64,000 bases of DNA from an uncultured Candidatus Saccharibacteria bacterium (GCA_964559575.1 CAZLGQ010000001.1:7067-71066), one strand, 5' to 3'. Shown: positions 1,821 to 55,465, counted from the stretch's first letter. Translations and numbers: made by a program. Notes: generated from the letters alone by a model not told the origin.

Positions 1821-4800
1821 TTATATGATAATATTTATGATCCTGTTGGGAACAAAGAATACTTTTTTTATTTCTTTACCATTACACCATTTTGAAAAGA
1901 CTGGGGTTTTTTTAACCTCATCTAAAACGGTTTTTTCTTTAGAGTCTCTAGGTAGTTCTATACTACCTCTTGTTTTTCCATTTATTTGAAATATTATTTT
2001 TACATTTTCTTTTAATAGTACATCAGGGTTATATTTGGGCCAGTTTTTTTTATGAATTGAAGTTCTATTCCCAAGTGTTTCCCATATTTCTTCGGTTATA
2101 TGTGGAGCAAAAGGTGCTAAAAGAATTAAAAGATTTTCAAGATTTTCTTTTTTGATTTCTTCTTTTTCATCCATTAAATTAACCAAGATCATAAGAGAAG
2201 ATATTGCAGTATTGAAAGAAAAAGATTCAATATCTTCATTTACTTTTTTAATGGTTTTATGTAATGCGGTTTTTGTTTTTGTATCATTATTTTTATTTAA
2301 AGATACCTTTTTAGATAAATTCCAAACTTTTTCCAAAAATCTATGTGCTCCAACCGGACCATTGATATTCCAAGCTACTTCACCTTCAAAGGGTCCCATG
2401 AACATTATATATATTCTAGCCGCATCGGCTCCAAAATTCTTTATAATATCATCCGGACTTACTATATTTCCCCAACGTTTACTCATTTTTCTTCCATCCG
2501 GACCCAGTATAAGACCTTGATTTCTAAGAGCTATAAATGGTTCTTTTGTACTTACTAAATTTTCTTCGTATAAAAATTTATGCCAAAAACGTGAATATAT
2601 TAGATGCCTGGTGGCATGTTCAACACCTCCAACATAAAGATCAACCGGCATCCAGTATTTTTCCTTTTTCTGAGAAACAAATTCTTTATTATTACTAGGA
2701 TCAATAAAACGAAGATAATACCAACAGGATCCCGCCCATTGTGGCATGGTATTGGTTTCTCTTTTAGCTGAAGATCCACAGTTAGGACACTCTGTTTCAA
2801 CCCATGAAGAAATATTGGCTAAAGGGGATTCTCCGGTACCGGTAGGTTCATATGACTTAACTTCCGGAAGCTTAATTGGAAGATCTTTTTCCGGAACCGG
2901 AACTACTCCACATTTCTCACAATGAATTAAAGGTATAGGTTCACCCCAGTAACGTTGTCTGGAAAAGACCCAATCTTTTAATTTGTATGTAATTTTTTTC
3001 TTTCCTTCAACTTTCTTTCTTATCATCTCTTTTGCTTTTTCGCTTTCGATACCGGAGAGGTCTTCCGAGTTGGCTAGAACCCCACTTCCGATATAAGCAA
3101 AATCACCTTCTTTTTTTAACCATTCCATCCAGATGTCTATCTCTGCACAGGTGAGAGATTTAGCGGTCTCTTGGTTAAATTCAAGCCACTCTATATCATG
3201 TTTTTCCATTTCTACCTTTGAAATTTTCTTTCTCCTATTGCTTTTTAATTTGAAATGAACTGCAGTGGTATATGCTTTTCTGTTCTCATTTTTATGAGCT
3301 GCGTGATAATGGGCTTCCACTTGAAAAGGTGTCATCTTTTGAAATTCAAGATCAGTATAACCGGTTTCTTCTTCCACCTCTCTCTTTGCCGCTTTTACTA
3401 TATCCTCTCCTTCTTCCACTCCTCCGACTATAAATGTTCTCCAATTGAACTTTTTCCATTTTAAAAAGAGCATTTTACCGGAATCCGGATCTTCTACTAT
3501 TACATGAACAGTTTTCCTCTCCACCGTCTTTTTACCTTTTATGGGTGGAGTATATTTATCGATCCTTTTTGGATAGATGACATAATTTATTGGTAGGCCT
3601 TTTTTCGAGGCGAAATCAAAATCTCTCTCATCGTGAGCCGGAACCGCCATTATGGCCCCGGTTCCGTGGTTAGAAAGAACATAATCAGCGATCCATATAG
3701 GTATTTTTTTACCATTAACAGGATTTATTGCGTTTATTCCTTTTATTTCCACTCCTGTTTTATTTTTTTCCTCAGAAGTTCTTTGTAATTCTGTTTTTCT
3801 TTTTGTTTTATTTATATAGTTTTTAATTTCTTGTTTATTTTCTACAAAACTCCAAATTTCTTGGATCTTTTGATGCTCCGGAGCCACTACCATATAAGTA
3901 GATCCATAAAGCGTATCCGGTCTGGTAGTAAATACCGGAAGTGAGTCAGTTAAAAGTTTTTTAAGAGCCTTTTTAACCGGTAAAAGATCTTCTATGTCTT
4001 CTTTACTTCCTCCGTCTATATGTTTTCCGGTTTCTTTTGATCTATAAAGTCCTCTTAGGGGAAAATTTGGATTCAATTTTCCTTTTCTTTTAGTTGTCAG
4101 TATGACCTCTCTTTTATTTTTTTTATTTTTTATATCACCATTTGGGGTTGATAAAACCCAAACATCTTGCCAGTAAGCTTCCACTTCTCCTCCGTGTTTT
4201 TTAGCTATATTAGTATAATAACTAACCATCTTTTTACTTATCTGTTCTTTTGATAGTTTATTCTGCTCTTCTTCAGTTAAAACATTTCTTTTTACTTTTA
4301 TAGGATTATTTTTTTCACCCTTTATGTAAAAACCGGTATCTCCTGCCAGGATTGGTAAATTTGTTTTTTCTCTATAAGCCAAAGCTTTCTTTTCAGCATT
4401 TTTTAAAAGAGATACGCCTCCCTCAATAACTTCTATTTCTTTTATTCCTTTTTCCTTGGGAGTAAAAACTTTAATATCTAAACCTTCTGAGTTTAAAAGT
4501 TCCTGAACTCTTTCTTTTTTGCTTGGATTGTTACTTGCCAGAAGTATTTCTTTATATATACATACAGGAAAATCTATTTCCACACCTTGACTTTTCCCTA
4601 TCCAGTTTTTTTGAGAGTCTTTGATTGAATCCGGCCATTTATCTAAGAGATCAAGATCTTTTAAAAGGTCTTCGGCATAATCGGTTATCTTTAAAACCCA
4701 CTGTCTTACTGGCTTCTGTTCTACCTCAGAGTCACATCTCTCACAAAGACCATTTTCCAGATCTTCATTTGCTAGCCCAGTTTTACAAGACGGACACCAA

Positions 4801-5270
4801 TTTATTGGTTCGTTTGATTCAAACGCTAGACCTTTTTTAAACATCTGCAAAAATATCCACTGAGTCCATTTATAGTACTCCGGATCTGTGGTATTTATTT
4901 CACGTTTCCAGTCATAAGAAAGACCGATACTTGATAATTGTTTTTTATATCTTTCAACATTTTTTTTAACAACTTTTTTAGGATGAGTTTTATTTTTTAA
5001 AGCATATCCTTCAGCGGGTAAACCAAAAGCGTCCCATCCCATTGGGTGTAAGACATTAAAACCTTTCATCCTTAAATATCTTGAATAGGTATCTGTTGGA
5101 ACATAATTACGCAAATGACCCGCGTGAATACCTTCTCCTGAAGGATAAGGAAACATATTTAAAATGTATTTTTTTTCTTTTTTATTGCTTTCTTTGGTGT
5201 GATATAGTTTTGCTTTTTCCCACTTTTCCTGCCATTTCTTTTCTATTCTTTTATGATTATATTTCTTCAT
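1821..5270 (-). CDS. leuS: Leucyl-tRNA synthetase with two large inserted domains (ITPase/Ham1-like and Nudix)
   Basis: HIGH-type motif PYPSGEGIHAGHLRNY and KMSKS motif (RKMSKRWGN) are present. The editing-domain hallmark VFTTRPDTLYGSTYMVVAPEH and AVPAHDERDFDFA, and the C-terminal anticodon-binding region, are also present. At 1149 aa it is about 300 aa longer than canonical bacterial LeuRS. Confidence 0.9.
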   Translation of the reverse strand: MKKYNHKRIEKKWQEKWEKAKLYHTKESNKKEKKYILNMFPYPSGEGIHAGHLRNYVPTDTYSRYLRMKGFNVLHPMGWDAFGLPAEGYALKNKTHPKKVVKKNVERYKKQLSSIGLSYDWKREINTTDPEYYKWTQWIFLQMFKKGLAFESNEPINWCPSCKTGLANEDLENGLCERCDSEVEQKPVRQWVLKITDYAEDLLKDLDLLDKWPDSIKDSQKNWIGKSQGVEIDFPVCIYKEILLASNNPSKKERVQELLNSEGLDIKVFTPKEKGIKEIEVIEGGVSLLKNAEKKALAYREKTNLPILAGDTGFYIKGEKNNPIKVKRNVLTEEEQNKLSKEQISKKMVSYYTNIAKKHGGEVEAYWQDVWVLSTPNGDIKNKKNKREVILTTKRKGKLNPNFPLRGLYRSKETGKHIDGGSKEDIEDLLPVKKALKKLLTDSLPVFTTRPDTLYGSTYMVVAPEHQKIQEIWSFVENKQEIKNYINKTKRKTELQRTSEEKNKTGVEIKGINAINPVNGKKIPIWIADYVLSNHGTGAIMAVPAHDERDFDFASKKGLPINYVIYPKRIDKYTPPIKGKKTVERKTVHVIVEDPDSGKMLFLKWKKFNWRTFIVGGVEEGEDIVKAAKREVEEETGYTDLEFQKMTPFQVEAHYHAAHKNENRKAYTTAVHFKLKSNRRKKISKVEMEKHDIEWLEFNQETAKSLTCAEIDIWMEWLKKEGDFAYIGSGVLANSEDLSGIESEKAKEMIRKKVEGKKKITYKLKDWVFSRQRYWGEPIPLIHCEKCGVVPVPEKDLPIKLPEVKSYEPTGTGESPLANISSWVETECPNCGSSAKRETNTMPQWAGSCWYYLRFIDPSNNKEFVSQKKEKYWMPVDLYVGGVEHATRHLIYSRFWHKFLYEENLVSTKEPFIALRNQGLILGPDGRKMSKRWGNIVSPDDIIKNFGADAARIYIMFMGPFEGEVAWNINGPVGAHRFLEKVWNLSKKVSLNKNNDTKTKTALHKTIKKVNEDIESFSFNTAISSLMILVNLMDEKEEIKKENLENLLILLAPFAPHITEEIWETLGNRTSIHKKNWPKYNPDVLLKENVKIIFQINGKTRGSIELPRDSKEKTVLDEVKKTPVFSKWCNGKEIKKVFFVPNRIINIII

Positions 5271-5357: not shown

Positions 5358-5879
5358 TTATATCTCCCTGGAATCATAAGCCCAATGTAAAATAGCTTGA
5401 CGTTGTTTAGGTCTACATGTCAGATCCCCAAAACGACAGTTTTTACTTACTTGGGCAATATGTCTACTGATCTGTTTCCATCTTTTAATCTGTCTTTTAT
5501 CCTCTTCTAAAAGGCGTCTTCCTAAGTAATATCTACAGTACCACTGAAACCAACCTCTGGGATCATGTTTTTCATTTATCCATCCTTTTTTTCTCCAATA
5601 TGACAGAGGTTGGCTTGCATTTATCTTAAAATAATTAAGATCGGGATCATGTCTTTTGGAGCAAAGTTTGGCGTTTTTAAACCAAGATTTTGGAAACTCC
5701 TTTTTACAGTCAGTCATATATTTACCTCCAAACACCCCCATTTCAAGCATTTTTTTAGGAGAAAGATCAGGCGTAAAATCAGGATCAAAATTTTTACCTA
5801 TGGGTTCTGTTAATTTATAGGTATAACCTTTTTGCATCAGATCATTTACTTTTATTATTTTTTCTTTTTTATTGAACAT
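5358..5879 (-). CDS. Hypothetical protein (Trp/Arg-rich, conserved-looking C-terminal half)
   Basis: 173-aa ORF with native AT-rich codon usage. The only motif-like stretch is GWFQWYCRYYLGRR...DKRQIKRW, and no family was recognised. Confidence 0.35.
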   Translation of the reverse strand: MFNKKEKIIKVNDLMQKGYTYKLTEPIGKNFDPDFTPDLSPKKMLEMGVFGGKYMTDCKKEFPKSWFKNAKLCSKRHDPDLNYFKINASQPLSYWRKKGWINEKHDPRGWFQWYCRYYLGRRLLEEDKRQIKRWKQISRHIAQVSKNCRFGDLTCRPKQRQAILHWAYDSREI

Positions 5880-6318
5880 AATTTAATAGATACCAAACAA
5901 AAAGAAAAACAAAACTCCACCAAGTAGTAAAAGATACAATAAAACTGATTGTAATATACTTTTGAATTTTTCTAGGTAAAAGTTCTCCGGATCTTTTTTC
6001 TTTTTCTTTTTTTAAAAGATAGGGACTTATATAAAAAGATAAAAAAGCTCCATTAATGACAAGTATTAGAATCATAAAAAGCTGTATCACAGGGATCCAT
6101 GTTATATAATTTTGAGAATAAAAAACTACACCACCGATCAAAGTTAAAAAGGTTCCGATCCATATTAGAGGTTTGGTTACTTTATGAGTTCTGATGGTTG
6201 ATTCAGTCCAATAAGATGAATTTCTTCCTAAAAATCCATGTATATCTATAACAGTAACAGCTCCTAGAGCTATTATTAAACCGGCTATAAATATAAATAG
6301 TCCTAAAAATTCTACCAT
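5869..6318 (-). CDS. Integral membrane protein (about 4 TM helices)
   Basis: 149-aa ORF with multiple hydrophobic segments (LGLFIFIAGLIIALGAV, IWIGTFLTLIGGVVF, LFMILILVINGAFLSFY, ISFIVSFTTWWSFVFLFVWYLL). Confidence 0.4.
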   Translation of the reverse strand: MVEFLGLFIFIAGLIIALGAVTVIDIHGFLGRNSSYWTESTIRTHKVTKPLIWIGTFLTLIGGVVFYSQNYITWIPVIQLFMILILVINGAFLSFYISPYLLKKEKEKRSGELLPRKIQKYITISFIVSFTTWWSFVFLFVWYLLNYVQ

Positions 6319-7952: not shown

Positions 7953-8813
7953 TTAAAAACCCTCATTAAAAGAAGAAGGATCTTCTAAAATTTCTTTTAT
8001 AACCCTCGGAAAGAAATTAAAAACATCGCTTGCTATCATTGATTCCCCAAATTTTTCGGAAGCCATGTCTCCTGCTTTACCGTTTATATAGCTTCCAAGA
8101 TAAGCCAAATCTAAAATATTAAAAGATTTTCTTGCCAAAAGTGCCCCACATACTCCTGCTAAGGTATCACCAAAACCACCTTTGGTCATAAAGGAATTTC
8201 CGGTTTTGTTTTTTAAGGTTTTTTCCCCGTTTGAAATTATATCCACCCTAGATTTTAATAGAATAGTGCTATTTAATATTTGAGCTATTTTTTTTGCTTC
8301 TTCTTCTCTACTATTTTCATTTTCAGAAGGATAGTAACCAGAAATGGATTTGAACTCATCTAAATGAGGTGTAAAAATAGCAGTTTTTTCTTTCACAATA
8401 TCAGTATCTTCAGCAATAGCTCTTATTGCTTCGGCATCTATTACCATTGGTATTTTAATTTCTTTTATTATCTCTCTAATGGCTGTAAAAGTTTCCGGAG
8501 ATCTATCTAATCCTCCGCCAATGATCAATGAATCAAAATTTTTTGATTCATTTATTACCAAAGATATATCTTTTTGAGAAAGTTCATTTTCCAAAGGTAT
8601 AGATATAATATCCGGTAAAAACAAAGAAGTATTAAAAGCTGCTCTTTTATGAGAAATAACAGTAACCAAATCAGCGCCTGTACGAAGAGCAGAAACAGCA
8701 TTAAAAATTGGAGAACCGGTATATCTTTCACTTCCGGCAATTATAAGAACTTTTCCAAAATCACCCTTGTGTGAAGAAGGTGATCTTTTAGGGTAAATAC
8801 TATTTATATCCAT
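7953..8813 (-). CDS. nnrD: ADP-dependent NAD(P)H-hydrate dehydratase (YjeF C-terminal domain family)
   Basis: HKGDFGKVLIIAGSERYTGSPIFNAVSALRTGADLVTV, GGGL and GGFGDTLAG motifs are characteristic of the YjeF_C carbohydrate-kinase fold. Confidence 0.7.
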   Translation of the reverse strand: MDINSIYPKRSPSSHKGDFGKVLIIAGSERYTGSPIFNAVSALRTGADLVTVISHKRAAFNTSLFLPDIISIPLENELSQKDISLVINESKNFDSLIIGGGLDRSPETFTAIREIIKEIKIPMVIDAEAIRAIAEDTDIVKEKTAIFTPHLDEFKSISGYYPSENENSREEEAKKIAQILNSTILLKSRVDIISNGEKTLKNKTGNSFMTKGGFGDTLAGVCGALLARKSFNILDLAYLGSYINGKAGDMASEKFGESMIASDVFNFFPRVIKEILEDPSSFNEGF

Positions 8814-10022: not shown

Positions 10023-10220
10023 TTAAATATTTCCTAATAATATTAAAACAATAATAACTATAACTGTAACCCAGATCAAAAATCCTAGACCAAATCCAAA
10101 TCCCAATTTAACAGACTCCCATACACCGAATTTCATTTTCAATTTGATATTTCTTGTGGTATTTTTTTCTTCCATATAAATTTTATATAAATTATTTCCA
10201 AAAATCTTTCCTTTTTTCAA
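10023..10220 (-). CDS. Small hydrophobic protein (possible single-pass membrane peptide)
   Basis: 65-aa ORF with C-terminal TM stretch GFLIWVTVIVIIVLILL. It overlaps the 3' end of the Nudix gene by 29 nt. Support is weak. Confidence 0.25.
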   Translation of the reverse strand: MKKGKIFGNNLYKIYMEEKNTTRNIKLKMKFGVWESVKLGFGFGLGFLIWVTVIVIIVLILLGNI

Positions 10221-10608
10221 CTATTGAAGTAACATTTAAGATCAAATTATCCGGAAGAAATCTTACGTTTATAAGATCTCTAAATAACACCCAAGAAAAA
10301 CGAATATGGTCTTCTTTACTTTTTACGATACTGTCTTTTATCTTAACTAAATAAACATCCAGGGTTTCATCTATTAATCTGTTTGTATTTTTGAACTGAT
10401 TATAAAAAGAATCAATATATTCAGTGGAAATAACGGTACTTCCTGACTCTTCTAAAAACTCTCTTTTTAAAGCTTCTTCGGAAGATTCATTCTCTTTAAC
10501 ATGCCCTCCGGGTAGAAAAAAATAACTTCCCGCTATATTTTCACATAATAGTATCTTTTCTTTTTGATAAACTATACCTCTGGCTATGTGTTCTTTAAAT
10601 CTTTTCAT
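10192..10608 (-). CDS. Nudix hydrolase
   Basis: Nudix box GGHVKENESSEEALKREFLEESG matches Gx5Ex7REUxEExGU. Confidence 0.7.
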   Translation of the reverse strand: MKRFKEHIARGIVYQKEKILLCENIAGSYFFLPGGHVKENESSEEALKREFLEESGSTVISTEYIDSFYNQFKNTNRLIDETLDVYLVKIKDSIVKSKEDHIRFSWVLFRDLINVRFLPDNLILNVTSIVEKRKDFWK

Positions 10609-11984: not shown

Positions 11985-12140
11985 TAAAATAGCGTTCTGT
12001 ACAGTGAAGAGAGGTGAAAATCCTCCGCTATCGCGTAACGGTTAAAGTCCGACCCTGTGCAAAAAAAAACGCAAAACAAGGCTCGCGTAAAGCCATAAAT
12101 CTTTTTGATATTTGGCTTTTTAAAAGCCAAAATTTTATTA
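11985..12140 (+). ncRNA. Candidate cobalamin-riboswitch-like 5' leader of nrdDG, followed by an attenuator-like hairpin
   Basis: A GC-enriched leader in an AT-rich genome contains GGTGAAAATCC (the cobalamin-riboswitch GGTGnnAAnTCC core) preceded by GAAGAGA. An AAGTCCGACCCTGTGC segment resembles the B12 box (rAGYCMG...CC.GC). The hairpin TTGGCTTTTTAAAAGCCAA followed by a T-run at 12111..12140 lies just before the nrdD start. Confidence 0.35.
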
Positions 12141-12157
12141 TTAAATCAAGAAAACTT

Positions 12158-14242
12158 ATGTACTCAAAAATAAAAAAAAGAAACGGAAATGTAGTAACTT
12201 TTAATGAAGAAAAAATAACTCAAGCAATTATAAAAGCCGGAAAGGTCACTGAAGAATTCGGTCCAAAAGAGGCACATAAGTTAACAAAAAAAGTTATTGA
12301 AGTTTCAAAAGAAAAAATTAAAAATAAAATTCCAAAAGTAGAAGAGATTCAGGATGTTGTAGAGGATGTTCTTCTTAATTCAAAGTTTAAAAAAACAGCA
12401 AAAGCATATATTTTATATAGAGATCAACACAGACTCTTAAGGAATATAACAGACACTACTAATAATGGATTAGTAGATAACTATTTAGCCAAAGCCGATT
12501 GGAAAATAAAAGAAAATAGTAATATGTCCTATTCTCTTCAGGGGTTAAATAACTATATATCAAGTGAAATAAGTAAAAACTATTGGTTGGGTAAAATATA
12601 CCCTGAAAATATAAGAGAAGCCCATACAAATGGAGCTTTTCATATACATGATCTATCTATTCTTTCTGTCTACTGTGTTGGTTGGGATCTTTTAGATCTT
12701 TTAATAAATGGGTTTACGGGAGTAGAAGGAAAAGTCTCTAGCAAACCCCCTAAACATTTCAGATCAGCCTTGGGGCAAGTTACTAATTTTTTTTACACTC
12801 TCCAAGGAGAAGCTGCCGGAGCTCAAGCTTTTAGTAATTTTGATACACTCCTCGCTCCTTTTATTAGATATGATGGATTAGGTTACAAAGAAGTAAAACA
12901 AGCTATTCAAGAGTTTATTTTTAATGTAAATATACCTACACGAGTAGGATTTCAAACTCCTTTTACTAACGTAACTCTTGATTTATCGGTTCCTAAATAC
13001 TATGCAAATCAATCAATTGTAATCGGAGGTAAACCTCAAAAAGAAAAATATAAAGATTTTCAAGAAGAGATAAATATTTTTAATAAAGCATTATTAGAAG
13101 TAATGTCCGAAGGAGATGCAAATGGAAGAGTTTTTACATTTCCTATACCAACTTATAACATAACAGAAAATTTTAATTGGGATAATGAAATAAGTAAGCT
13201 TCTTTGGAAAGTAACTTCTAAATATGGACTTCCATACTTTTCAAACTTTATAAATTCCGATATGAATCCTGAAGATGCTCGTTCTATGTGTTGTCGTTTA
13301 AGGATAGATAACAGAGAACTGGAAAATAGAGGCGGAGGTCTCTTTGGTGCAAATCCTCTAACCGGTTCTATTGGTGTCGTTACTATAAATCTTCCTCGTA
13401 TAGGTTATATTTCAAAAAATAAGGAAGAATTTTTAGATAATCTTGATAATTTAATGTCAACAGCAAAAGACAGTTTGGAAATAAAAAGAAAGATTTTAGA
13501 AAGATTTACTGAAAATAATTTATACCCCTATACTAAATTTTATTTAAATAAAATAAAAGAACAGTATGGCAGTTACTGGAAAAATCATTTTTCAACTATA
13601 GGTATAGCCGGTATGAATGAAGCCGTGCAAAATCTATATGGTAAAAATATAGGAACATCTGAAGGACAGGAGTTTTCTAAAGAAGTTTTAGACTTTATGA
13701 GAAATGTGCTTGAAAAATTTCAAAAAGAAACGGGAAATAATTATAATCTAGAAGCCACCCCGGCAGAAGGAACACTTTTTAGGTTGGCTATTCTTGATAA
13801 AGAAAAATATCAAAATCCTGTATTTGCAAATGGTAAAGGTAAAGATGTAAAAACTCCTTTTTACACAAATTCAACTCATTTACCTGTTAACTTTACTGAC
13901 GATATTTTCGAAATGCTTGATCTTCAAGATGAACTCCAAACTAAATATACTGGAGGAACAGTTGCACATCTTTTTTTTGGTGAAAAGATAGAAGATGAAA
14001 ATTCAGTAAAAAATTTAATAAAAAAAATCTGTAAAGAATATCGTTTACCCTATTTTACAGTAAGCCCAACTTTTAGTGTTTGTCCTGAACATGGATATAT
14101 TTCCGGTGAAGTATATACTTGCGAAAAATGTAAAAATGAATGCGAAGTTTATTCAAGAATAGTTGGATACCTTAGACCTATAAATCAATGGAACGATGGA
14201 AAGAAATCAGAATTTGAAATAAGAAAAAACTATAAAAAATGA
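12158..14242 (+). CDS. nrdD: Anaerobic ribonucleoside-triphosphate reductase (class III RNR)
   Basis: N-terminal ATP-cone (KIKKRNGNVVTFNEEKITQAIIKAG), C-terminal Zn site (CPEHGYISGEVYTCEKCKNEC) and glycyl-radical motif RIVGYLRP. Start moved to the internal ATG at 12158, since the 48 upstream codons of the track ORF cover the structured leader. Confidence 0.85.
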   Translation: MYSKIKKRNGNVVTFNEEKITQAIIKAGKVTEEFGPKEAHKLTKKVIEVSKEKIKNKIPKVEEIQDVVEDVLLNSKFKKTAKAYILYRDQHRLLRNITDTTNNGLVDNYLAKADWKIKENSNMSYSLQGLNNYISSEISKNYWLGKIYPENIREAHTNGAFHIHDLSILSVYCVGWDLLDLLINGFTGVEGKVSSKPPKHFRSALGQVTNFFYTLQGEAAGAQAFSNFDTLLAPFIRYDGLGYKEVKQAIQEFIFNVNIPTRVGFQTPFTNVTLDLSVPKYYANQSIVIGGKPQKEKYKDFQEEINIFNKALLEVMSEGDANGRVFTFPIPTYNITENFNWDNEISKLLWKVTSKYGLPYFSNFINSDMNPEDARSMCCRLRIDNRELENRGGGLFGANPLTGSIGVVTINLPRIGYISKNKEEFLDNLDNLMSTAKDSLEIKRKILERFTENNLYPYTKFYLNKIKEQYGSYWKNHFSTIGIAGMNEAVQNLYGKNIGTSEGQEFSKEVLDFMRNVLEKFQKETGNNYNLEATPAEGTLFRLAILDKEKYQNPVFANGKGKDVKTPFYTNSTHLPVNFTDDIFEMLDLQDELQTKYTGGTVAHLFFGEKIEDENSVKNLIKKICKEYRLPYFTVSPTFSVCPEHGYISGEVYTCEKCKNECEVYSRIVGYLRPINQWNDGKKSEFEIRKNYKK

Positions 14243-14925
14243 AAATAGGAGGATTACATAAATTTTCCTTAATTAACTATCCTGAAAAAACTTCTGCCGT
14301 TATATTTACCATAGGATGTAATTTTCGTTGCAGTTACTGTCATAATTTGAAACTTGTATTTCCTAATAAATATTCTGAAGAAATTTCAATTGAAGAAATA
14401 TTAAACTTTTTAAAAAGTAGACAGAATAAACTGGATGCCGTTGTTATTAGTGGAGGAGAGCCTACAGAACATTCAGATCTGTTAAATTTCATTTCTGATA
14501 TCAAAGAATTGGGTTTTTTAATTAAGCTTGATACCAACGGAAGTAATCCAAATGTCTTACAAGAGATCATAAAAAATAACTTGATCAACTATATAGCAAT
14601 GGATATAAAAGCCCCTATTAAAAAACATCAAAAAGTAACAAGAAGTTTAATAGATTTTAAAAAAATAAAAGAAAGTATAAATATAATAATGAGATCTGAA
14701 ATAGAATACGAATTTAGAACTACAGTGGTAAAAGAATTAATTAATAGTGAGGATCTTATTTATTTAGCAAAAATGATATACGGAGCTGAAAAATACTTTT
14801 TACAAACTTTCAATTTTTCAAAATCAGATTTAGGATCCTTAAATTTTTCCTCTTATTCTAAAGAGGAAATGGAAAAAATGGCTAAAAATTTAAGGAAATA
14901 TGTTAAAGAATGTAAAGTTAGGTAA
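14239..14925 (+). CDS. nrdG: Anaerobic ribonucleoside-triphosphate reductase activating protein (radical SAM)
   Basis: CNFRCSYCHN radical-SAM CxxxCxxC motif. Overlaps the nrdD stop by 4 nt. Confidence 0.8.
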   Translation: MKIGGLHKFSLINYPEKTSAVIFTIGCNFRCSYCHNLKLVFPNKYSEEISIEEILNFLKSRQNKLDAVVISGGEPTEHSDLLNFISDIKELGFLIKLDTNGSNPNVLQEIIKNNLINYIAMDIKAPIKKHQKVTRSLIDFKKIKESINIIMRSEIEYEFRTTVVKELINSEDLIYLAKMIYGAEKYFLQTFNFSKSDLGSLNFSSYSKEEMEKMAKNLRKYVKECKVR

Positions 14926-20801: not shown

Positions 20802-22337
20802 ATGCTTAATATGAATAAAAAAGAAAATAATAATGACCTCAATAAAATAGGTTTAACCATCCAAAAATTCAGAGAAAAAAATAACTTAACTCAAAAGGAT
20901 CTAGCAAATAAACTTGAAACCACTCAAAGTGCAGTTGCTAGAATGGAAAGTGGTGATCAAAACATAAGTGCTTCTACTCTTTCTAAAATAAATCAGGCTT
21001 TAGAAATAAATCTTTTTCATATCAATTCCGAATCTCTTACTGTAAAAATAAAAGGAGGAAAAAAATTAAAAGGATCAATTGAAACAAAAACATCAAAAAA
21101 CGGAGCGGTTGGTTTAATGTGTGCCTCAATTTTAAACAAAGGAAAAACCACACTAAAAAACACTCCACGTATTGAAGAAGTTTTTAGAATAGCTGAAGTT
21201 TTAGAAAGCATTGGTTTTAACATTACTTGGAAAAATTCTGACATGACCATAAGCCCTCCTGAAAAAATAAAAATTGATTCAATAAATAAAGAAGCGGCTC
21301 AAAAAACAAGGAGTATAATAATGTTTTTAGGTCCTTTGATCCATAAACTACCTTCTTTCCAATTACCAACTATAGGAGGTTGTAGACTTGGAAAAAGAAA
21401 TACCAGTCCTCATTTTTTTGCGCTAGAAAGTTTAGGAGTATCTTTTAAAAAAGGAAATTGGCAATATAAACCTTCTTCTTCCTTAAAACCCAAAACAGTT
21501 ATACTTTATGAATCCGGAGACACGGTAACTGAAAACGCTATTATGGCCGCCGCAGGCATTCCTACAACTACCACTATAAAATTTGCCTCAGCAAATTACC
21601 AAGTACAGGAAATGTGCTTTTTCTTAAAAAAATTAGGAGTAAAAATAGAAGGAATAGGTACTACTACATTAAAAGTAACAGGCTTAAGTGAAATAAATAA
21701 AAATATTTCATATAATTTAAGTGAGGATCCAATAGAATCAATGTTCTTTTTAGCTACTGCAATAGTAACTAATTCATCAATAACAATAAAACGTTGCCCA
21801 ATAGATTTTTTAGAACTTGAACTTCTCAAATTAAAAAAAATGGGCTTTAAATACAAAAAAAGTGATGTTTATTTTTCAGAAAATCAAGAAACAAAATTAG
21901 TTGATATAACAACCTATCAATCTAAAATGAAAGCCGGAAGAGATACAAAAATAGAACCAAGACCTTATCCCGGTTTAAATATTGATAACCTGCCTTTTTT
22001 TGCAATTATCGCAACTCAAACAGAAGGACAGATCTTAATACACGACTGGGTTTATGAAGAAAGAGCAATATATTATAAAGAACTGGATAAACTTGGAGCT
22101 AAAACTATATTAGCAGATCCTCATCGTATATATATTTCAGGTAAAACTCCTCTTATAGCAAATGAAGTTATCTGCCCTCCGGCACTTAGACCGGCTGCCA
22201 TAATACTAATTGGAATGTTAGCGGCAGATGGTGTATCTGTTTTAAGAAATATATACAGTATAAACAGAGGATATGAAAGTATAATAGAAAGATTAAATGA
22301 TCTAGGGGCTTCTATTGAATTTGAATCAAATATTTAA
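20802..22337 (+). CDS. murA: UDP-N-acetylglucosamine 1-carboxyvinyltransferase with an N-terminal XRE-type HTH domain (fusion)
   Basis: Residues about 15-70 (LTQKDLANKLETTQSAVARMESGDQNISASTLSKINQAL) form an XRE/Cro-type HTH. The remainder aligns end-to-end with MurA (IKGGKKLKGSIETKTSKNGAVGLMCASIL, active-site loop GGCRLGKRNTSPH, C-terminal INRGYESIIERLNDLGASIE). Confidence 0.75.
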   Translation: MLNMNKKENNNDLNKIGLTIQKFREKNNLTQKDLANKLETTQSAVARMESGDQNISASTLSKINQALEINLFHINSESLTVKIKGGKKLKGSIETKTSKNGAVGLMCASILNKGKTTLKNTPRIEEVFRIAEVLESIGFNITWKNSDMTISPPEKIKIDSINKEAAQKTRSIIMFLGPLIHKLPSFQLPTIGGCRLGKRNTSPHFFALESLGVSFKKGNWQYKPSSSLKPKTVILYESGDTVTENAIMAAAGIPTTTTIKFASANYQVQEMCFFLKKLGVKIEGIGTTTLKVTGLSEINKNISYNLSEDPIESMFFLATAIVTNSSITIKRCPIDFLELELLKLKKMGFKYKKSDVYFSENQETKLVDITTYQSKMKAGRDTKIEPRPYPGLNIDNLPFFAIIATQTEGQILIHDWVYEERAIYYKELDKLGAKTILADPHRIYISGKTPLIANEVICPPALRPAAIILIGMLAADGVSVLRNIYSINRGYESIIERLNDLGASIEFESNI

Positions 22338-22387: not shown

Positions 22388-24271
22388 ATGGATCTTATTA
22401 CAGTTACACCACTGGTTCAAACCGCTTCCAAGGAGTGTCTTAGTTATTTTACTGATCAAAAAATAAAAGAAAACTCAATTGTTTCCGTAAATATAAGAAA
22501 TAAAGAAGTTCCAGCTTTGGTTTTAAAAAAAGAATCAGTTGAAAAAGTTAAATCCCGTATAAAAAGTAGCAATTTTGGCTTTAAAAAAATCAATTCCGTA
22601 TTAACAGAAAACATCTATTCAAATAGTGTATTGGAAGCCGCTAAAGAAACCTCTGATTTTTATTCCGCTTCTATTGGAGGTGTATTAAAAGCTATTACCC
22701 CAAAAATATTACTAACAGAACCGGTAAAAATCAAAAAAGAAAAAGAAAATAAACATAGAGAGATAAAACCGGAAAAAATGGTTTTACAGATCTCTCGTGA
22801 TGAAAGGATTCTTTTTTATAAACAACACACAAGAGGGGTTTTAGCTAAGGAAGGATCTGTGTTCATCTGTGCTCCAACCAAAAAAGACGTGGAGTTTCTT
22901 TCAGATAATTTAAAAAAAGGTATTGAACACGCTACTTTTACTTTTCACGGAGATATGTCTAATAAAGAGATCAAAGAAACCTGGGAAAAAGCTTTAACAA
23001 AAAAACCTAAATTAATAATATCCACAGGTCTTTTCTTATCAATATTTAATAACTCTTTTGAATCACTTATTTTAGAAAGAGAATCTTCAGAACTATACTA
23101 CACCAACAAAAGACCTCATTTTGATATATCCTTTCTATCTTACTCACTGGCCAAAAAAAGTGGGGTTAAATTTATTACTTCCGATACTTTACTTTCAGTA
23201 AAGACATATAAAAAATATAGAGATAATCAGTTTACCGAAGCAACTCCTTTGCAAAAAAAATACAGAGAAGGAGGAAAGGTTTCTATTATTGATATGACTA
23301 AAATAGAAGAAAAAAACAACCCTTATATGCCTTCTTTGTGTTCATTTTCCATAAAAAAATTAGCTTCCAATTCTTTAAGGTCTTTTATTTATACAGCCAG
23401 AAGAGGACTTTCTCCAACAACTATATGCAGTGATTGTGGATTTACTTTTTCGTGTCCAAAATGTTATTCACCGTTAGTTCTTCATGAAGGAAACAAAAAA
23501 AGAAATTTCATCTGTCACACTTGTACTTACCATGAAGAACCTAAGGACTACTGCCCTAAATGTGACTCTTGGAGATTAACACAGTTGGGAATAGGAAGTG
23601 AAAAAGTATCAAAAAATATTCAAAAGATATTTCCTAAAAAAAATATCATTCGTATGGATTCTGATAATGCCAATACCGTAAAAAAACAAGAAAAACTTTG
23701 GCAAGAATTTAAAGAAAAACCAAACTCTATTTTAATTGGTACCAATATGGCAATAAATTATATTAGATCTGATATGGTAGATATAGAAAATATAATAGTA
23801 GCATCAACAGATTCACTTCTTACTTATCCAAACTATTCTGCAAGTGAGCGTGTATTCAGAACACTTACCGAACTTTCATTAATAGCTAAAAAAGAACTAG
23901 TTATACAAACAAGATTGCCTGAGCAAAATTTATTAACTTATGTTAAAAATAAAGAAAATATAAGTTTTTTTGAAAAAGAGTTGGAAACAAGAGAAAAACT
24001 CTCTTACCCTCCTTTTTCAATACCAATAACCGTTACCTTTTCCGGTAAAAGTTATAAAATAGAAGAAAAAGAAAATTATCTAAATAAAAAATTTAATTTC
24101 TTTAACCCTTATTTCATTCCTTCTATTTCCGAAAAAAGGCAAGGTCTTATAACAAATAAAATGTTAATAAAGATACCAAAAAACATTTGGCCAAACAGAA
24201 AAGTTACAGAAAGCTTGAAATCTTTATCGCCAGAGTATAAAGTTGCAATTGATCCGCCAAACATTATTTAA
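22388..24271 (+). CDS. priA: Primosomal protein N' (PriA)-like, helicase motifs apparently degenerate
   Basis: PriA-type Cys-rich zinc region CSDCGFTFSCPKCYSPLVLHEGNKKRNFICHTCTYHEEPKDYCPKCDS matches PriA (C..CG...CP.C...L..H....L.CH.C......CP.C.S). No clear Walker A GKT was seen. Confidence 0.6.
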   Translation: MDLITVTPLVQTASKECLSYFTDQKIKENSIVSVNIRNKEVPALVLKKESVEKVKSRIKSSNFGFKKINSVLTENIYSNSVLEAAKETSDFYSASIGGVLKAITPKILLTEPVKIKKEKENKHREIKPEKMVLQISRDERILFYKQHTRGVLAKEGSVFICAPTKKDVEFLSDNLKKGIEHATFTFHGDMSNKEIKETWEKALTKKPKLIISTGLFLSIFNNSFESLILERESSELYYTNKRPHFDISFLSYSLAKKSGVKFITSDTLLSVKTYKKYRDNQFTEATPLQKKYREGGKVSIIDMTKIEEKNNPYMPSLCSFSIKKLASNSLRSFIYTARRGLSPTTICSDCGFTFSCPKCYSPLVLHEGNKKRNFICHTCTYHEEPKDYCPKCDSWRLTQLGIGSEKVSKNIQKIFPKKNIIRMDSDNANTVKKQEKLWQEFKEKPNSILIGTNMAINYIRSDMVDIENIIVASTDSLLTYPNYSASERVFRTLTELSLIAKKELVIQTRLPEQNLLTYVKNKENISFFEKELETREKLSYPPFSIPITVTFSGKSYKIEEKENYLNKKFNFFNPYFIPSISEKRQGLITNKMLIKIPKNIWPNRKVTESLKSLSPEYKVAIDPPNII

Positions 24272-32873: not shown

Positions 32874-34118
32874 TCAAACAAAGTCGAGTCTTTTCCGTAC
32901 CTCTTTGACAACCGCTTTCGCTTCTTCTCGAGAATTGATGGACAGTCCGGTAACATCAATGCCACCGTGATAGAGCACACCGGGATTGGTTATGACCGCA
33001 AAAGGTTCTTGAGTCGATGGAACCAAAATCTCTTTCAGTTCACCAAACAGCTCTTTAAACCCTAAGCTTTTCCCGGTTGAAATGTGTTCATGCCAAAAGT
33101 GGTAACCGAAAGATCCGGGGTTACGGATCTTCGCCAATCGTTTTGACATCTCATAGATAAAAACTATTGCGCCTTTCCTGGGATTGAAATCAGTCCAGTA
33201 GACGTTTCCAGTTTCATCTATAAGAATATCACAACAGAAATAACCTTTGGCACCGGATCTCTGAAGATAAGGAACAAGTTTGGTTTCCAGATCTGTTCTG
33301 ATCCTACTCTCTATCTCTCTGGTAAGCCTAGTTGGAAAGGCTGTACCGGAATAAGACAGATTAGTGGATAGTTGATCAAAGATACCTATATCCAAAAACT
33401 TCCCATCTTCAGTGATCTCCCAATGAACACAGACTTCATCAACGATCTTGACCATCTGCTCTACGATGAAGGGGCTGCACATCCCTTCAACTGTTGGCAT
33501 TTTTGCCACAAGATCTTCATAAGATGAGATCTGATGCAATCCACCCAGATCTACACCACCCGTACCTCTTGAGGATTTCAGAAGAAAACCATTTCCATTC
33601 TTACCTGTAAGGAATGACTTGGTTACCTTGAGAAGTTCTTCCGGATCCTTACCACCCACCCAAGGGGCGGTTTTTAATCCCAGTTCTTCACAAAGCAACT
33701 TAAAGTTATACTTACAGGCAAAAGGAATGGATACCTCAAAGTTACAGTAAGGAGGAATCCCCAGAATTGAAGAAAGATAACGTTCACTTTCTTCTATCCA
33801 GAAAAACTCCAATCGGGCAGATCGACCATTAATGGACCCCAGAATCTCATCCTGAACTTCTTGCTTGGAGATTACCAAATCGGCTAAAGTAAGATCTCTA
33901 TCAAACGGACCAGCTACGATCATTCTCGGTAATGTAAAACCGAGATCCTGCCAATAGGCAAGATAATCAGAATCGATCGGTTTGGTAGTGACCACTACAT
34001 GACCATCTCCAACTTGGCACAGTCCGCCACGTTGATCAAAATCTTGCTCCATCTCAATACCTCGAAAGAGACTATTGCTCTGAGTCTCGATCATAACACG
34101 AGTTTTTTCGCCTTTCAT
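32874..34118 (-). CDS. ATP-grasp family ligase (substrate unknown), GC-rich and compositionally foreign
   Basis: C-terminal ATP-grasp core LLKSSRGTGGVDL, FIVEQMVKIVDEVCVHWEI and YFCCDILIDETGNVYWTDFNPRKG (the D-x-N catalytic loop). Local GC is about 45% against about 30% in neighbouring genes. Confidence 0.6.
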   Translation of the reverse strand: MKGEKTRVMIETQSNSLFRGIEMEQDFDQRGGLCQVGDGHVVVTTKPIDSDYLAYWQDLGFTLPRMIVAGPFDRDLTLADLVISKQEVQDEILGSINGRSARLEFFWIEESERYLSSILGIPPYCNFEVSIPFACKYNFKLLCEELGLKTAPWVGGKDPEELLKVTKSFLTGKNGNGFLLKSSRGTGGVDLGGLHQISSYEDLVAKMPTVEGMCSPFIVEQMVKIVDEVCVHWEITEDGKFLDIGIFDQLSTNLSYSGTAFPTRLTREIESRIRTDLETKLVPYLQRSGAKGYFCCDILIDETGNVYWTDFNPRKGAIVFIYEMSKRLAKIRNPGSFGYHFWHEHISTGKSLGFKELFGELKEILVPSTQEPFAVITNPGVLYHGGIDVTGLSINSREEAKAVVKEVRKRLDFV

Positions 34119-38858: not shown

Positions 38859-40085
38859 CTAATTTTGATCATCTTCTTGTTCTACAAAAACATACATAGT
38901 TCCCAGATCTTTTTTTCTTCCCATAAAAGTACTTATTTCCTGAATATCACTTGCTATTTTTTTTGTATTTTTATCAATATTTTTTTTATTTAAAACATCT
39001 TCCTCACTAACACCTCCAAAAGTAAAAGATCTTTCCGAAACTGGTTCACAACTAAAAATAATCGCAGAAGAATTTTTCCCCGTAACGCTTTCTGTATTAT
39101 TTAAATGTATTTCTGTATCTTCCACTACTTTACTATCCAAACCTTCAAAATCCTCTCCATCAAATGGAAGATCTTTTAACAGATCATTTAACTTTAAACC
39201 ACTATCATCAACTTCTTTATAAGTGTCTTTAAGTTTATGTCTTGTTTTTACCTGAATACCATAAACAGAAGATTCTAAATTAGAGCCGAATTCCACAAGA
39301 TCATTTAAGGAAAAATCTTTATAAAAAAACTCTTCTATTTCTTCTTTTTTTTCTTCATTAGTATCTGGATCAATAGAAATTAGATCAATTTCATTTTCCG
39401 CATCCATTCTAGGCGGAGGAAAATAAGCTTTTTTTCCCATTGATTCAATGTGACTATATGCATCAGCAAGACTTACAACTCCTCGTTTAAATGATTCATA
39501 ATCTTCTTCCGAACCAAAAGCTCTCCTACCATAAGAATCAAGTTTTCCTTCAATGTTTTCTAAGTTATCAAAATGTCTTAGATAATACTGAGCCATAAAC
39601 TGTTGTAAAGCTGCATTTTCAGTATTTCGTTTAAGTGAATCAATACTCTTTTTCTTTTCTAGGCCCTTTCTATTTGCATAAAAAGATAAAAGAGTATGAC
39701 CTTCAAAAAATTTAGCTGTTTTTTGAGATTCTTCTATAATAGTTTCTTTCTCCTCTTCTGATAAATAACTTGCAAAATCCAGCATCTCAACTAAAGTTTT
39801 ATGAAGAGATATATAATCAAGAGCTGATCTTCTGGCAAAAAGGTCCACCATTCTTAGTCTCTCATGAGAACTAACAGACTCTAAAGAATCATCAAAAGCA
39901 CGCTTAGTTACTGTTTCCATTTCATTAAAACGAGTTTTTATTTCTTTTACTATATCTTCAGCTTTCGGCTCTTTTTCCAAAAGTGTTAAAAATCTATCAA
40001 TAGATTCATCTTCAAAAAAATTATCTTCAACAGATTCTTTATTATTTATTTCTTTTTTAGAAAACTGCTTTTCAAATGATTCCAT
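38859..40085 (-). CDS. Hypothetical protein (acidic, helical)
   Basis: 408-aa ORF with native composition. No family was recognised. Confidence 0.35.
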   Translation of the reverse strand: MESFEKQFSKKEINNKESVEDNFFEDESIDRFLTLLEKEPKAEDIVKEIKTRFNEMETVTKRAFDDSLESVSSHERLRMVDLFARRSALDYISLHKTLVEMLDFASYLSEEEKETIIEESQKTAKFFEGHTLLSFYANRKGLEKKKSIDSLKRNTENAALQQFMAQYYLRHFDNLENIEGKLDSYGRRAFGSEEDYESFKRGVVSLADAYSHIESMGKKAYFPPPRMDAENEIDLISIDPDTNEEKKEEIEEFFYKDFSLNDLVEFGSNLESSVYGIQVKTRHKLKDTYKEVDDSGLKLNDLLKDLPFDGEDFEGLDSKVVEDTEIHLNNTESVTGKNSSAIIFSCEPVSERSFTFGGVSEEDVLNKKNIDKNTKKIASDIQEISTFMGRKKDLGTMYVFVEQEDDQN

Positions 40086-54232: not shown

Positions 54233-55465
54233 ATGAAAAAAAATACTATTATTTTGATCATTTTAGTGATGATAATTATTTTATTATCTTTTTTCATTAC
54301 CAATCACCTAGAAGACTCTACTAAAGAACCGGTTGAATTAAAAGATCCTGAAGAATTAAAAGAACTTTCTTACTCAGCTAAAGATTTCTCTTTCGATATT
54401 TTTTCCAGCTTAGCTGAAAACGAAGAAAATATCTTCATCTCCCCATACAGTATTCACACTGCTCTAACAATGGCCTACCGAGGTGCCGGATCAGAAACCG
54501 CCGAGGAAATGGCCGAGGTTTTGGGACTTAGCAATATGCAACTCAAAGCTCTGATGGATAGCTCTTTGGGCTTAAAGCAGTACCTGGAACACTTCTCGGA
54601 GCAAAACGAAGTAGCTATAGCCAACGCTTTATTTTTAAGAAACGACATCCCTTTCCGTAACTCTTACAAAACTGACGCTAAAAAATACTTTGAAGGCGAG
54701 ATCGATTCTTTACCGGATGCCGGTGAACCGGTAAATGATTGGGTTTTTAAAAATACTCAAGAAAAAATAGATCAGATCATTGATCCCGGACCTATAGACC
54801 CGAATGTTATTGCCTATTTAGTTAATGCCATCTACTTTAAAGGCATTTGGGCTGAAGAGTTCGATCAAGATCTAACTGAAAATAGACCATTTTACGGTAC
54901 CGGTGGTGAAGTAGAAATTGAAATGATGGAAAACGAATCAGACTATCGGTTTGCAGTCTCTGAAAACTTGAAATCACTAACCATAAAATACCAAGACGGT
55001 GACTATCTAATGCACGTCTTTATGCCTACCGACGAACAACCTCTCTCTGAACTCTATCAAAATTTAGACAGAGAAACCTTTGAATCAATGAAACCCACTA
55101 ACCAAGAAAATATAACTTTGCGGTTCCCTAAATTTACTCTAGAAGATGAGCTGGGACTGGTAGAGACCTTGGAAGCAATGGGTATAAAAACCGCTTTTAA
55201 CGAGAACCTAGCAGACTTTTCCGAAATGGTCGACCTGGAAGAACTTGGATTTAACGTCTTCATCTCCGATGTACTTCATGCTTCATTCATAGAAGTAGAC
55301 GAAAAGGGTACCGAAGTGGCTGCCGCCACCGCGGTTGAAATGAAAATGGAATCAGCACCAATGCCAGGTTCGGTAGTAGAATTTAATAAACCATTCCTTT
55401 TTATAATAGAAGAACCGAAAACCGAAACCATTCTTTTTATGGGACATTTGGTTGATCCTAATTAA
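54233..55465 (+). CDS. Serpin (serine protease inhibitor) with N-terminal membrane anchor/signal
   Basis: C-terminal serpin signature FNKPFLFIIEEPKTETILFMGHLVDP. The reactive-centre-loop hinge region (GTEVAAATAVEMKMESAP) is typical of inhibitory serpins. An N-terminal hydrophobic helix is present. Confidence 0.75.
   Translation: MKKNTIILIILVMIIILLSFFITNHLEDSTKEPVELKDPEELKELSYSAKDFSFDIFSSLAENEENIFISPYSIHTALTMAYRGAGSETAEEMAEVLGLSNMQLKALMDSSLGLKQYLEHFSEQNEVAIANALFLRNDIPFRNSYKTDAKKYFEGEIDSLPDAGEPVNDWVFKNTQEKIDQIIDPGPIDPNVIAYLVNAIYFKGIWAEEFDQDLTENRPFYGTGGEVEIEMMENESDYRFAVSENLKSLTIKYQDGDYLMHVFMPTDEQPLSELYQNLDRETFESMKPTNQENITLRFPKFTLEDELGLVETLEAMGIKTAFNENLADFSEMVDLEELGFNVFISDVLHASFIEVDEKGTEVAAATAVEMKMESAPMPGSVVEFNKPFLFIIEEPKTETILFMGHLVDPN

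Follow-up and report, generated by a model that had tools for sequence, protein, structure and literature searches.

A leucyl-tRNA synthetase from an uncultured Saccharibacteria bacterium with Ham1-like and Nudix domains inserted in its editing domain

The bacterial leucyl-tRNA synthetases (LeuRS) of known structure have 822-880 amino acids (aa) and share a catalytic core, a ZN1 region, the CP1 editing domain, an anticodon-binding domain, and a C-terminal domain (PDB:1H3N, PDB:4AQ7). Aminoacyl-tRNA synthetases with accessory domains are already known: in NF040702, an isoleucyl-tRNA synthetase (IleRS), which is also a class Ia synthetase, is joined to an unrelated small-molecule enzyme domain (an N-acetyltransferase or GNAT domain), a combination that NCBI curators treat as an architecture of its own. 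Domains of the Ham1 family also occur in fusions with an RNA/tRNA-processing enzyme, RNase PH. Here we describe a LeuRS from an uncultured Candidatus Saccharibacteria bacterium. Its gene (leuS) lies at 1821..5270 on the minus strand of a 64,000-nucleotide stretch of DNA (GCA_964559575.1, CAZLGQ010000001.1:7067-71066), which we will call the window. The protein has 1149 aa, with a Ham1-like domain and a Nudix hydrolase domain inserted into loops of CP1. The IleRS is another host with other cargo. The window LeuRS has two domains within internal loops of the editing domain, and its relatives have up to four or five. Unlike the RNase PH fusions, which are joined end to end, it has an internal insertion of a divergent Ham1 subfamily. 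(One such fusion, P0201 (Ham1 and RNase_PH_C), was found with our profile for this subfamily, but at only 90 bits.)

Our full-text searches of the literature turned up no account of LeuRS that contain Nudix or Ham1 domains, nor of such a habit of insertion in the Candidate Phyla Radiation (CPR)/Patescibacteria, and a survey of the Nudix clan nowhere mentions synthetases (PMC5389931). A preliminary description of the window, made from the sequence alone, had proposed that a two-domain LeuRS was undescribed. That still appears to hold, but the architecture is not rare: most of the 120 closest clusters of LeuRS have the Nudix insert, and the Ham1-like insert is one among several alternative kinds of cargo. 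Such sequences are abundant in public databases, where they are annotated plainly as leucine--tRNA ligase. The editing domains of synthetases are textbook constrained modules, and this CP1 retains from one to several foreign enzymes over long evolution. We infer that both inserts are active nucleotide pyrophosphatases, tethered to an essential LeuRS as part of a lineage-wide habit of packing. As a whole, we consider this reading fairly probable.

The host synthetase and its junctions

We compared the window protein to canonical LeuRS. It scores 1000 bits against TIGR00396 (leuS_bact, cut-off 548.4), and inserts aside, it is collinear from end to end with the LeuRS of Thermus thermophilus and E. 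coli. In the alignment to T. thermophilus LeuRS (1H3N), residues 1-236 correspond to 1-236, 444-565 to 243-362, 723-923 to 374-579, and 928-1149 to 637-876. Loop 237-242 of the T. thermophilus protein is replaced by about 207 residues and loop 363-373 by about 157 residues. Both loops lie within the CP1 editing domain, which spans about residues 224-417 in T. thermophilus. These results, together with the continuous reading frame, bear out the proposal in the preliminary description that a 1149-aa LeuRS had been enlarged by two inserts, and the length that it gave for canonical bacterial LeuRS (about 820-870 aa) agrees with the solved structures.

The N-terminal catalytic body (aa 1-238; 4557..5270, minus strand, as for all of leuS) includes the first CP1 strand (GVEIDF) and matches Pfam's tRNA-synt_1 at aa 12-226. 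The CP1 core (aa 442-567; 3570..3947) matches PF13603 with 186.8 bits and aligns with T. thermophilus 243-362; between its anchors, it has a constant 96 aa across homologs. The C-terminal body (aa 722-1149; 1824..3107) contains the rest of the catalytic domain and the anticodon-binding and C-terminal domains, as judged from the T. thermophilus alignment and a match to Anticodon_1. The HIGH motif is HAGH (aa 49-52; 5115..5126), the counterpart of HMGH in T. thermophilus, and the KMSKS-type motif is KMSKR (aa 928-932; 2475..2489), the counterpart of VMSKS. In the editing domain, TTRPDT (aa 448-453; 3912..3929) and PAHDERD (aa 544-550; 3621..3641) are identical or nearly identical in T. thermophilus. 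The latter is part of AVPAHDERD (aa 542-550), the counterpart of the AVPxHDxRD motif of T. thermophilus, conserved aspartate included. As all four motifs are kept, this LeuRS is intact. Neither the synthetic site nor the editing site looks damaged, so the window LeuRS should still charge and proofread tRNA-Leu.

Besides the added ~203 aa and ~154 aa in the CP1 loops, the window LeuRS differs from canonical bacterial LeuRS in that it lacks the leucine-specific domain. Residues 580-636 of T. thermophilus LeuRS have no counterpart, and four residues, PDGR (aa 924-927; 2490..2501), stand in their place, directly before KMSKR. According to PMC3643597, a comparable tetrapeptide replaces the leucine-specific domain in the LeuRS of Mycoplasma mobile.

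We set the boundaries of the inserts by aligning the protein to orthologs whose sites are empty (for insert 1, P0004-P0009). This placed the inserts at aa 239-441 and aa 568-721, within a few residues of the spans proposed earlier. NCBI has a protein identical to the window LeuRS (P0001, from a metagenome-assembled genome (MAG), on a 71-kb contig). Homologs with the same two-insert architecture are found in independent assemblies: P0002 (from Logan) at 77% identity, P0003/P0124 (loci L014 and L015, each in a different NCBI MAG) at 71% identity, and P0014, P0015, P0022, and P0099 (from JGI, ENA, and NCBI) at about 50% identity. P0003/P0124 (MGM0482479.1, MGM0629291.1) are also LeuRS of 1149 aa, and NCBI names them "non-canonical purine NTP pyrophosphatase". 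This naming hides an essential leuS, so that the genomes would appear to lack it, which is the opposite of the error made when the enzymes go unnoticed under a LeuRS label.

Part by part, the window LeuRS is 86% identical to P0002 and 80% identical to P0003 in the N-terminal body, 74% and 68% in insert 1, 74% and 72% in the CP1 core, 72% and 72% in insert 2, and 80% and 70% in the C-terminal body. Both inserts are thus under purifying selection and as constrained as the CP1 editing core.

Could this architecture be an assembly or binning chimera, or could the inserts be inteins or remnants of mobile elements that are being removed or are decaying? The GC content at third codon positions does differ somewhat between the parts (0.18 in insert 1, 0.33 in insert 2, and 0.22-0.27 in the LeuRS body), and one relative has a DUF559 (Vsr-like endonuclease) domain at the site of insert 1. 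But the frame is continuous, and the same junctions recur in independent assemblies (at least four with 67-77% identity, and many others with about 50%), which rules out a chimera. Against a selfish element, the inserts are under purifying selection, as noted above; the window LeuRS has no Pfam match to the Hint/intein family (the same search detects Intein_splicing and LAGLIDADG in P0154, a topoisomerase described below); and we looked for direct or inverted repeats flanking the junctions and found none. As the differences in GC content are also small, we ruled out an intein or a mobile element. An artefact is essentially excluded, and we give explanations of this kind almost no weight.

The two inserted domains

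Insert 1 (aa 239-441; 3948..4556) is a complete Ham1/ITPase-fold domain from a distinct Patescibacterial subfamily, as indicated by Pfam, an AlphaFold2 (AF2) model, Foldseek, and the alignment to empty sites. PF01725 (Ham1p_like) matches aa 242-336 with 30.6 bits in the whole protein and 35.4 bits in the isolated insert, above the gathering threshold of 22.5, and this match is confined to positions 1-92 of the profile. The AF2 model of the isolated insert (pLDDT 88.7, pTM 0.82) matches Ham1 from Staphylococcus aureus, PH1917 from Pyrococcus horikoshii, E. coli RdgB, and human ITPA over its full length (Foldseek E = 1e-11 to 1e-7, TM up to 0.81; matches include 4bnq, 1v7r, and 1k7k). Maf proteins are lower in the Foldseek list.

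Insert 2 (aa 568-721; 3108..3569) is a Nudix hydrolase domain. PF00293 (NUDIX) matches aa 585-701 with 45.2 bits in the whole protein and 49.0 bits in the isolated insert, where the gathering threshold is 21.1. Its AF2 model, also made from the isolated insert, has a pLDDT of 91.5 and matches Nudix hydrolases, with their alpha/beta/alpha fold. The fold neighbours include RppH and several Ap4A/Ap6A hydrolases. With confident models that match known folds, both inserts are complete and autonomous folds.

Is insert 1 an ITPase, as had been proposed? The family and the fold were correctly identified, but the expected hydrolysis of ITP/dITP is doubtful. Insert 1 fails the equivalog models for RdgB/HAM1 by wide gaps (TIGR00042, 21.7 bits vs. 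145.35; NF011397, 34.6 vs. 234; NF011399, 46 vs. 267). As in RdgB, Ham1, and ITPA (PF01725; 1K7K, 4BNQ, 2CAR), which share the whole fold, the subfamily keeps the N-terminal (S/T)-x-N-x-x-K, the metal-binding glutamate, N-A-x-x-K, and the second aspartate of the DD pair. (This comparison of motifs used RdgB and ITPA as reference sequences.) In the window domain, the phosphate- and metal-binding residues that are kept are Ser246, Asn248, Lys251, Glu283, Lys295, and Asp311. The phosphate-binding motif is SNNPSK (aa 246-251; 4518..4535), which is equivalent to TGNxGK in RdgB; the asparagine is present in 29 of 30 embedded copies of the domain and the lysine in all 30. In the DD region, AGDTGF (aa 309-314; 4329..4346), the first aspartate is replaced by glycine, and the second (Asp311) is invariant (30/30 embedded copies). 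The first position varies across the subfamily.

FG(Y/W)DP and SHR are the base- and ribose-recognition motifs of ITPases. Throughout the subfamily, free-standing genes included, FP(L/I/V)RxLY takes the place of FG(Y/W)DP, and xP(V/I) that of SHR. In the window, the domain has FPLRGLY, LPV, and GD where canonical members have FG(Y/W)DP, SHR, and (D/E)D, and unlike them it is embedded in another protein. The subfamily also has additions, namely a helical segment and a KVKRNA motif. Given the equivalog scores and the absence of the FGxDP and SHR motifs, we rejected a canonical ITPase. Because the phosphate and metal residues are kept and the motifs for recognizing hypoxanthine or xanthine are replaced, the Ham1-like domain is probably still a nucleotide pyrophosphatase, with another specificity. 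The invariant residues (N, K, E, K, D, R, P) are conserved as well in the embedded copies (n=30) as in close free-standing members (n=17).

For insert 2, the position and pattern of the Nudix box had been given exactly: GGVEEGEDIVKAAKREVEEETGY at aa 616-638 (3357..3425) fits Gx5Ex7REUxEExGU. Among 99 aligned inserts at this site, the box residues E7, R15, E16, and G22 are found in all 99, E19 in 97, and E20 in 98. Downstream, the X-loop and a family motif form YHAAHKNENR (aa 655-664; 3279..3308), with an aromatic residue 17 positions after the box (+17) followed by HKxxNR. The residue at +17 is aromatic in 97 of the 99 inserts (72 Tyr and 25 Phe), and in HKxxNR, the histidine is present in 90, the lysine in 98, the asparagine in 99, and the arginine in 97. 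Because the catalytic box is essentially invariant, this domain is most likely an active pyrophosphohydrolase.

An aromatic residue at +17 of the X-loop has been linked to ApnA hydrolases (PMC5389931). RppH/NudH and the Ap(n)A hydrolases of the Nudix family (4S2W, 4MPO, 4IJX, 3I7U, 1VC8), as well as the uncharacterised Nudix protein 2AZW from Enterococcus faecalis, resemble insert 2 in their Nudix fold, their perfect box, and an aromatic residue about 17 positions downstream in the X-loop. They are only 15-24% identical to it, and unlike them, insert 2 has its own HKxxNR motif, an N-terminal extension (PPxxGKKxVER), and a location in CP1. Insert 2 has the X-loop tyrosine at +17 and misses all of the NCBIfam equivalog cut-offs for Nudix proteins. 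The fold and the aromatic X-loop somewhat favor placement in the RppH / dinucleoside-polyphosphate hydrolase group.

The window also has a stand-alone Nudix gene (138 aa; 10192..10608, minus strand; PF00293, 42.8 bits) about 5 kb from leuS, so this genome has at least two Nudix enzymes. The stand-alone protein is distant from insert 2 (36% identity over 53 aa, and 26.9 bits against a profile of the inserts). We rejected it as a protein of the LeuRS-insert type, along with Nudix proteins encoded near an archaeal Ham1-like/leuS pair (described below): all have only generic similarity in the box.

Embedded and free-standing relatives

Searches with single sequences were uninformative about hosts. 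Insert 1 found only three free-standing proteins of about 200 aa (41-45% identity over 90% of its length) and insert 2 only one; neither search returned the LeuRS hosts. An exhaustive profile search of 1.84 billion representatives was needed to reveal the Ham1-like family, and with it, this distinct subfamily is now delimited. The search returned 44 cluster representatives with E <= 1e-30, and 423 with E <= 1e-10, in which free-standing genes of 205-215 aa are mixed with copies inside proteins of 1000-1600 aa. In a neighbor-joining tree without bootstrap support, which is suggestive at most, free-standing and embedded copies interleave. To tell one ancient insertion from repeated local moves, we compared the divergence of the Ham1-like domain with that of the LeuRS body; there was no correlation (rho = -0.06), over a range of identities too narrow to be informative.

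The Nudix insert is ancient, clade-wide, and common to most LeuRS of the clade. We examined the 120 best clusters of LeuRS, all labelled in their source databases as Patescibacteria, Paceibacterota, or Parcubacteria. A strict Nudix box is present in 112 of these, and 11 have two. The spacing from PAHD to DWxxSRQR is about 217 aa in nearly all of the 120 clusters vs. 80-98 aa in P0056 and P0057, which lack the insert. The distribution of the Ham1-like insert is patchy. P0004-P0009, which lack it, match the body of the window LeuRS as closely (78-80% and 68-73%) as does P0003, which has it. Because LeuRS with and without it are equally close in the body, the gain or loss of the Ham1-like insert is recent relative to the Nudix insert.

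Other cargo is found at the same sites. The site of insert 1 (site 1) can hold a Ser_hydrolase domain with an intact GHSLGG elbow (in P0018, P0033, and others), DUF559 (in P0053), or a second Nudix domain with a degenerate box (in P0021). The site of insert 2 (site 2) holds HAD in P0113 and both Nudix and Ser_hydrolase in P0026. A third site, between "...DYA.RLL.DLD" and "LLDWPESIKE", has one or two further Nudix domains (in P0010-P0013, P0017-P0019, P0024, P0032, P0050, P0071, P0118, and P0200), one of which has a degenerate box (E to Q, and R to A or V). Some LeuRS have HAD or Ser_hydrolase in their C-terminal half, downstream of the DWxxSRQR anchor. P0200, a LeuRS of 1610 aa, has two Nudix domains, a Ham1-like domain, and a HAD domain. 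The Ham1-like domain itself also occurs after CP1, at site 2, in the LeuRS P0159 and in the C-terminal region of the LeuRS P0156.

Insertions recur at these sites, which are hotspots in LeuRS, and other proteins are hosts as well. An alanyl-tRNA synthetase (AlaRS; P0218, 1287 aa) has a Ham1-like domain inside it, along with guanylate kinase and Ser_hydrolase. In a DNA topoisomerase I (TopA; P0154, 1621 aa), a NUDIX domain and then a Ham1-like domain stand between Toprim and Topoisom_bac, and a LAGLIDADG intein is also present. P0128 is a free two-domain protein with Ham1-like and Ser_hydrolase domains. We also examined the window's own cysteinyl-tRNA synthetase (CysRS), which has no insert.

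We then examined the neighbourhoods of the free-standing Ham1-like genes. Of the sampled genes that are nearest to the embedded copies, four of eight are directly upstream of leuS, on the same strand, with gaps of 9-677 bp. In L004, the gap is 677 bp, and leuS has Ser_hydrolase at site 1; in L008, the gap is 9 bp, and leuS has Ser_hydrolase and Nudix; and in L011, the gap is 89 bp, and leuS (817 aa) has no insert. These three loci share synteny with the window (YchF ... leuS, then a Sigma70_r4/HARE-HTH gene) and may represent one ancestral arrangement. (In the window, the position directly upstream of leuS is taken by two overlapping open reading frames (ORFs) of 173 aa and 149 aa (5358..6318, minus strand) with no match in Pfam. 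The 149-aa ORF is hydrophobic and membrane-like. In L008 and L011, the free-standing Ham1-like gene is in the position directly upstream of leuS.)

In the fourth locus, L007 (6001..9373; GCA_016196285.1, JACPXY010000004.1), the Ham1-like gene is 22 bp upstream of an archaeal-type leuS (TIGR00395, 832 bits). The gene content of L007 is archaeal (S17e, eIF-1A, and a tRNA-intron endonuclease). In the unsupported neighbor-joining tree, the L007 gene groups with the inserts of bacterial LeuRS, which hints at a transfer between domains of life in which the association with leuS was kept.

In the other four loci, Ham1-like genes are in a hydrolase operon of NTPase_I-T, His_Phos_1, Ham1-like, HAD, and CYTH (L003), in an operon with HAD (L009), and 15 bp before a gene of the Sua5/YciO/YrdC family (L013, 5001..6194). 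Enzymes of this family produce threonylcarbamoyl-AMP, likewise an adenylate intermediate. In L012, the neighbours of the Ham1-like gene have no matches in Pfam.

More broadly, an alignment-based scan of species-representative genomes found the family in 28 genomes, nearly all of which are titled as Patescibacteria lineages, unlike a scan with a single sequence, which found no match in species-representative genomes. In the 28 genomes, four Ham1-like copies lie inside LeuRS. Of the free-standing genes, 23 could be assessed, and none of these is near leuS; the 24 free-standing genes have no conserved neighbourhood, save for an adjacent Nudix gene in three loci. The link between Ham1-like genes and leuS is real and is confined to the sub-clade that holds the embedded copies.

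Explanations for the embedding

We propose that the Nudix domain was acquired long ago in a surface loop of CP1 and kept across the clade, and that the Ham1-like domain is a later, patchy cargo whose source is a family of free-standing genes, each about 205 aa long. As tethered enzymes, the two domains would serve in the housekeeping or salvage of nucleotides and would be made 1:1 with an essential, constitutively expressed LeuRS. They would be one instance of a lineage-wide insertion of small hydrolases or kinases into the loops of essential proteins. AlaRS and TopA host the same domains, which argues for such generic tethering, and the repertoire of cargo is shared with other essential proteins and with operons of small hydrolases. 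The data do not require any catalytic cross-talk with aminoacylation. Several observations weigh against this proposal. In P0002, the closest ortholog, the Nudix box is dead (REIEKNTGY, with EE replaced by KN) in a domain that is otherwise 72% identical, and in P0073, the box is altered (REVRSE). Because of these altered boxes, Nudix catalysis is dispensable in at least some lineages. With glycine for the first aspartate of the DD pair and no base-recognition motifs, the Ham1-like domain could be a binding module instead of an enzyme. Also, hitch-hiking alone does not explain why four of the eight nearest free-standing genes are upstream of leuS (in one case a leuS of the archaeal type), or why three positions in LeuRS host the Ham1-like domain. 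Given these leuS-adjacent relatives, a specific link to LeuRS must still be considered.

Such a link might be functional: the inserts could act on by-products of LeuRS, such as Ap4A (diadenosine tetraphosphate) or other Ap(n)N formed from Leu-AMP and NTPs, or on non-cognate aminoacyl-adenylates that pre-transfer editing releases. This would add a cis-acting layer of adenylate sanitation beside the CP1 editing site. Both of these domain types cleave NMP-X anhydride bonds, the cell makes its Ap4A mainly through aminoacyl-tRNA synthetases, and Hint, of the HIT family, hydrolyses the aminoacyl-adenylates that are made by LysRS. Both inserts are within CP1; nearly the whole clade has retained the Nudix domain in one loop, with an invariant catalytic box; and its fold neighbours (RppH and Ap4A/Ap6A hydrolases among them) and its aromatic residue at +17 (PMC5389931) would fit such substrates. 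The gene order in L004, L008, and L011, and independently in the archaeal-type L007, and the presence of the Ham1-like domain at site 1, site 2, and the C-terminal region of LeuRS also favor coupling. But L004, L008, and L011 are syntenic and could reflect a single event, and the broader free-standing family is away from leuS in 23 of 23 cases. TopA, which makes no adenylate, hosts the same domains, as does AlaRS; DUF559, HAD, Ser_hydrolase, and guanylate kinase are ill-suited to an adenylate-specific role; and P0002 tolerates a dead box. Overall, we view coupling to LeuRS as the main rival to tethering, possible but unlikely. Another idea is that the inserts were co-opted as structural, nucleotide-sensing, or RNA- or protein-binding domains that modulate tRNA binding or the regulation of LeuRS. 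Nudix folds do have non-catalytic roles in mitoribosomal L46, CFIm25, and NrtR, and the dead box of P0002 and the degenerate extra Nudix copies would fit. However, the conservation of E7, R15, E16, E19, and E20 in 97-99 of the 99 site-2 inserts is hard to explain without catalysis, the metal and phosphate invariants of the Ham1-like domain are as frequent as in the free-standing genes (which presumably encode enzymes), and neither insert evolves faster than the CP1 core. We find a purely non-catalytic role improbable.

If tethered housekeeping is the right explanation, then salvage or sanitation activities are invisible to metabolic reconstructions under the label of leucine--tRNA ligase. If the inserts instead act on by-products of LeuRS, this would amount to a novel form of translational quality control or of control over an alarmone (Ap4A). 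Two wider readings are possible. The Ham1-like and Nudix domains, perhaps with Ser_hydrolase or HAD, may form a so far unrecognised layer of proofreading and sanitation for LeuRS, in cis or in trans, that destroys non-cognate aminoacyl-AMP and Ap(n)N at the editing domain; such an association may be old and may have been kept both as a gene fusion in the CPR and as a Ham1-like/leuS gene pair, including in a DPANN-like archaeon. Or, Patescibacteria may systematically embed whole enzymes of nucleotide metabolism, namely Nudix, Ham1-like, HAD, Ser_hydrolase, and guanylate kinase, in the loops of the essential proteins LeuRS, AlaRS, and TopA, as an undescribed form of genome compaction and co-expression. 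Taken together, we regard these two readings as doubtful, and the broader phenomenon of embedding has a real chance of deserving its own description. In any case, these proteins are a natural experiment in domain insertion, with ready permissive sites for the engineering of LeuRS, and the dead box of P0002 is a natural variant that is useful as a control.

Other genes in the window

Near leuS, the window encodes NrdD, an anaerobic ribonucleotide reductase that has an ATP-cone, together with its activase (12014..14925, plus strand), and a metabolite-repair enzyme, NAD(P)H-hydrate dehydratase (7953..8813, minus strand). These fit with an anaerobic lifestyle that is centred on nucleotide salvage and repair. 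Three ORFs, of 627 aa (22388..24271, plus strand), 414 aa (32874..34118, minus strand), and 408 aa (38859..40085, minus strand), have no Pfam family at E <= 1e-5. The window also encodes an unusual fusion of 511 aa (20802..22337, plus strand), with an N-terminal HTH_3 domain and an enzyme with the EPSP_synthase fold (MurA/AroA-type). Finally, there is a full-length serpin (54233..55465, plus strand; PF00079, 329.8 bits) in this small-genome bacterium.

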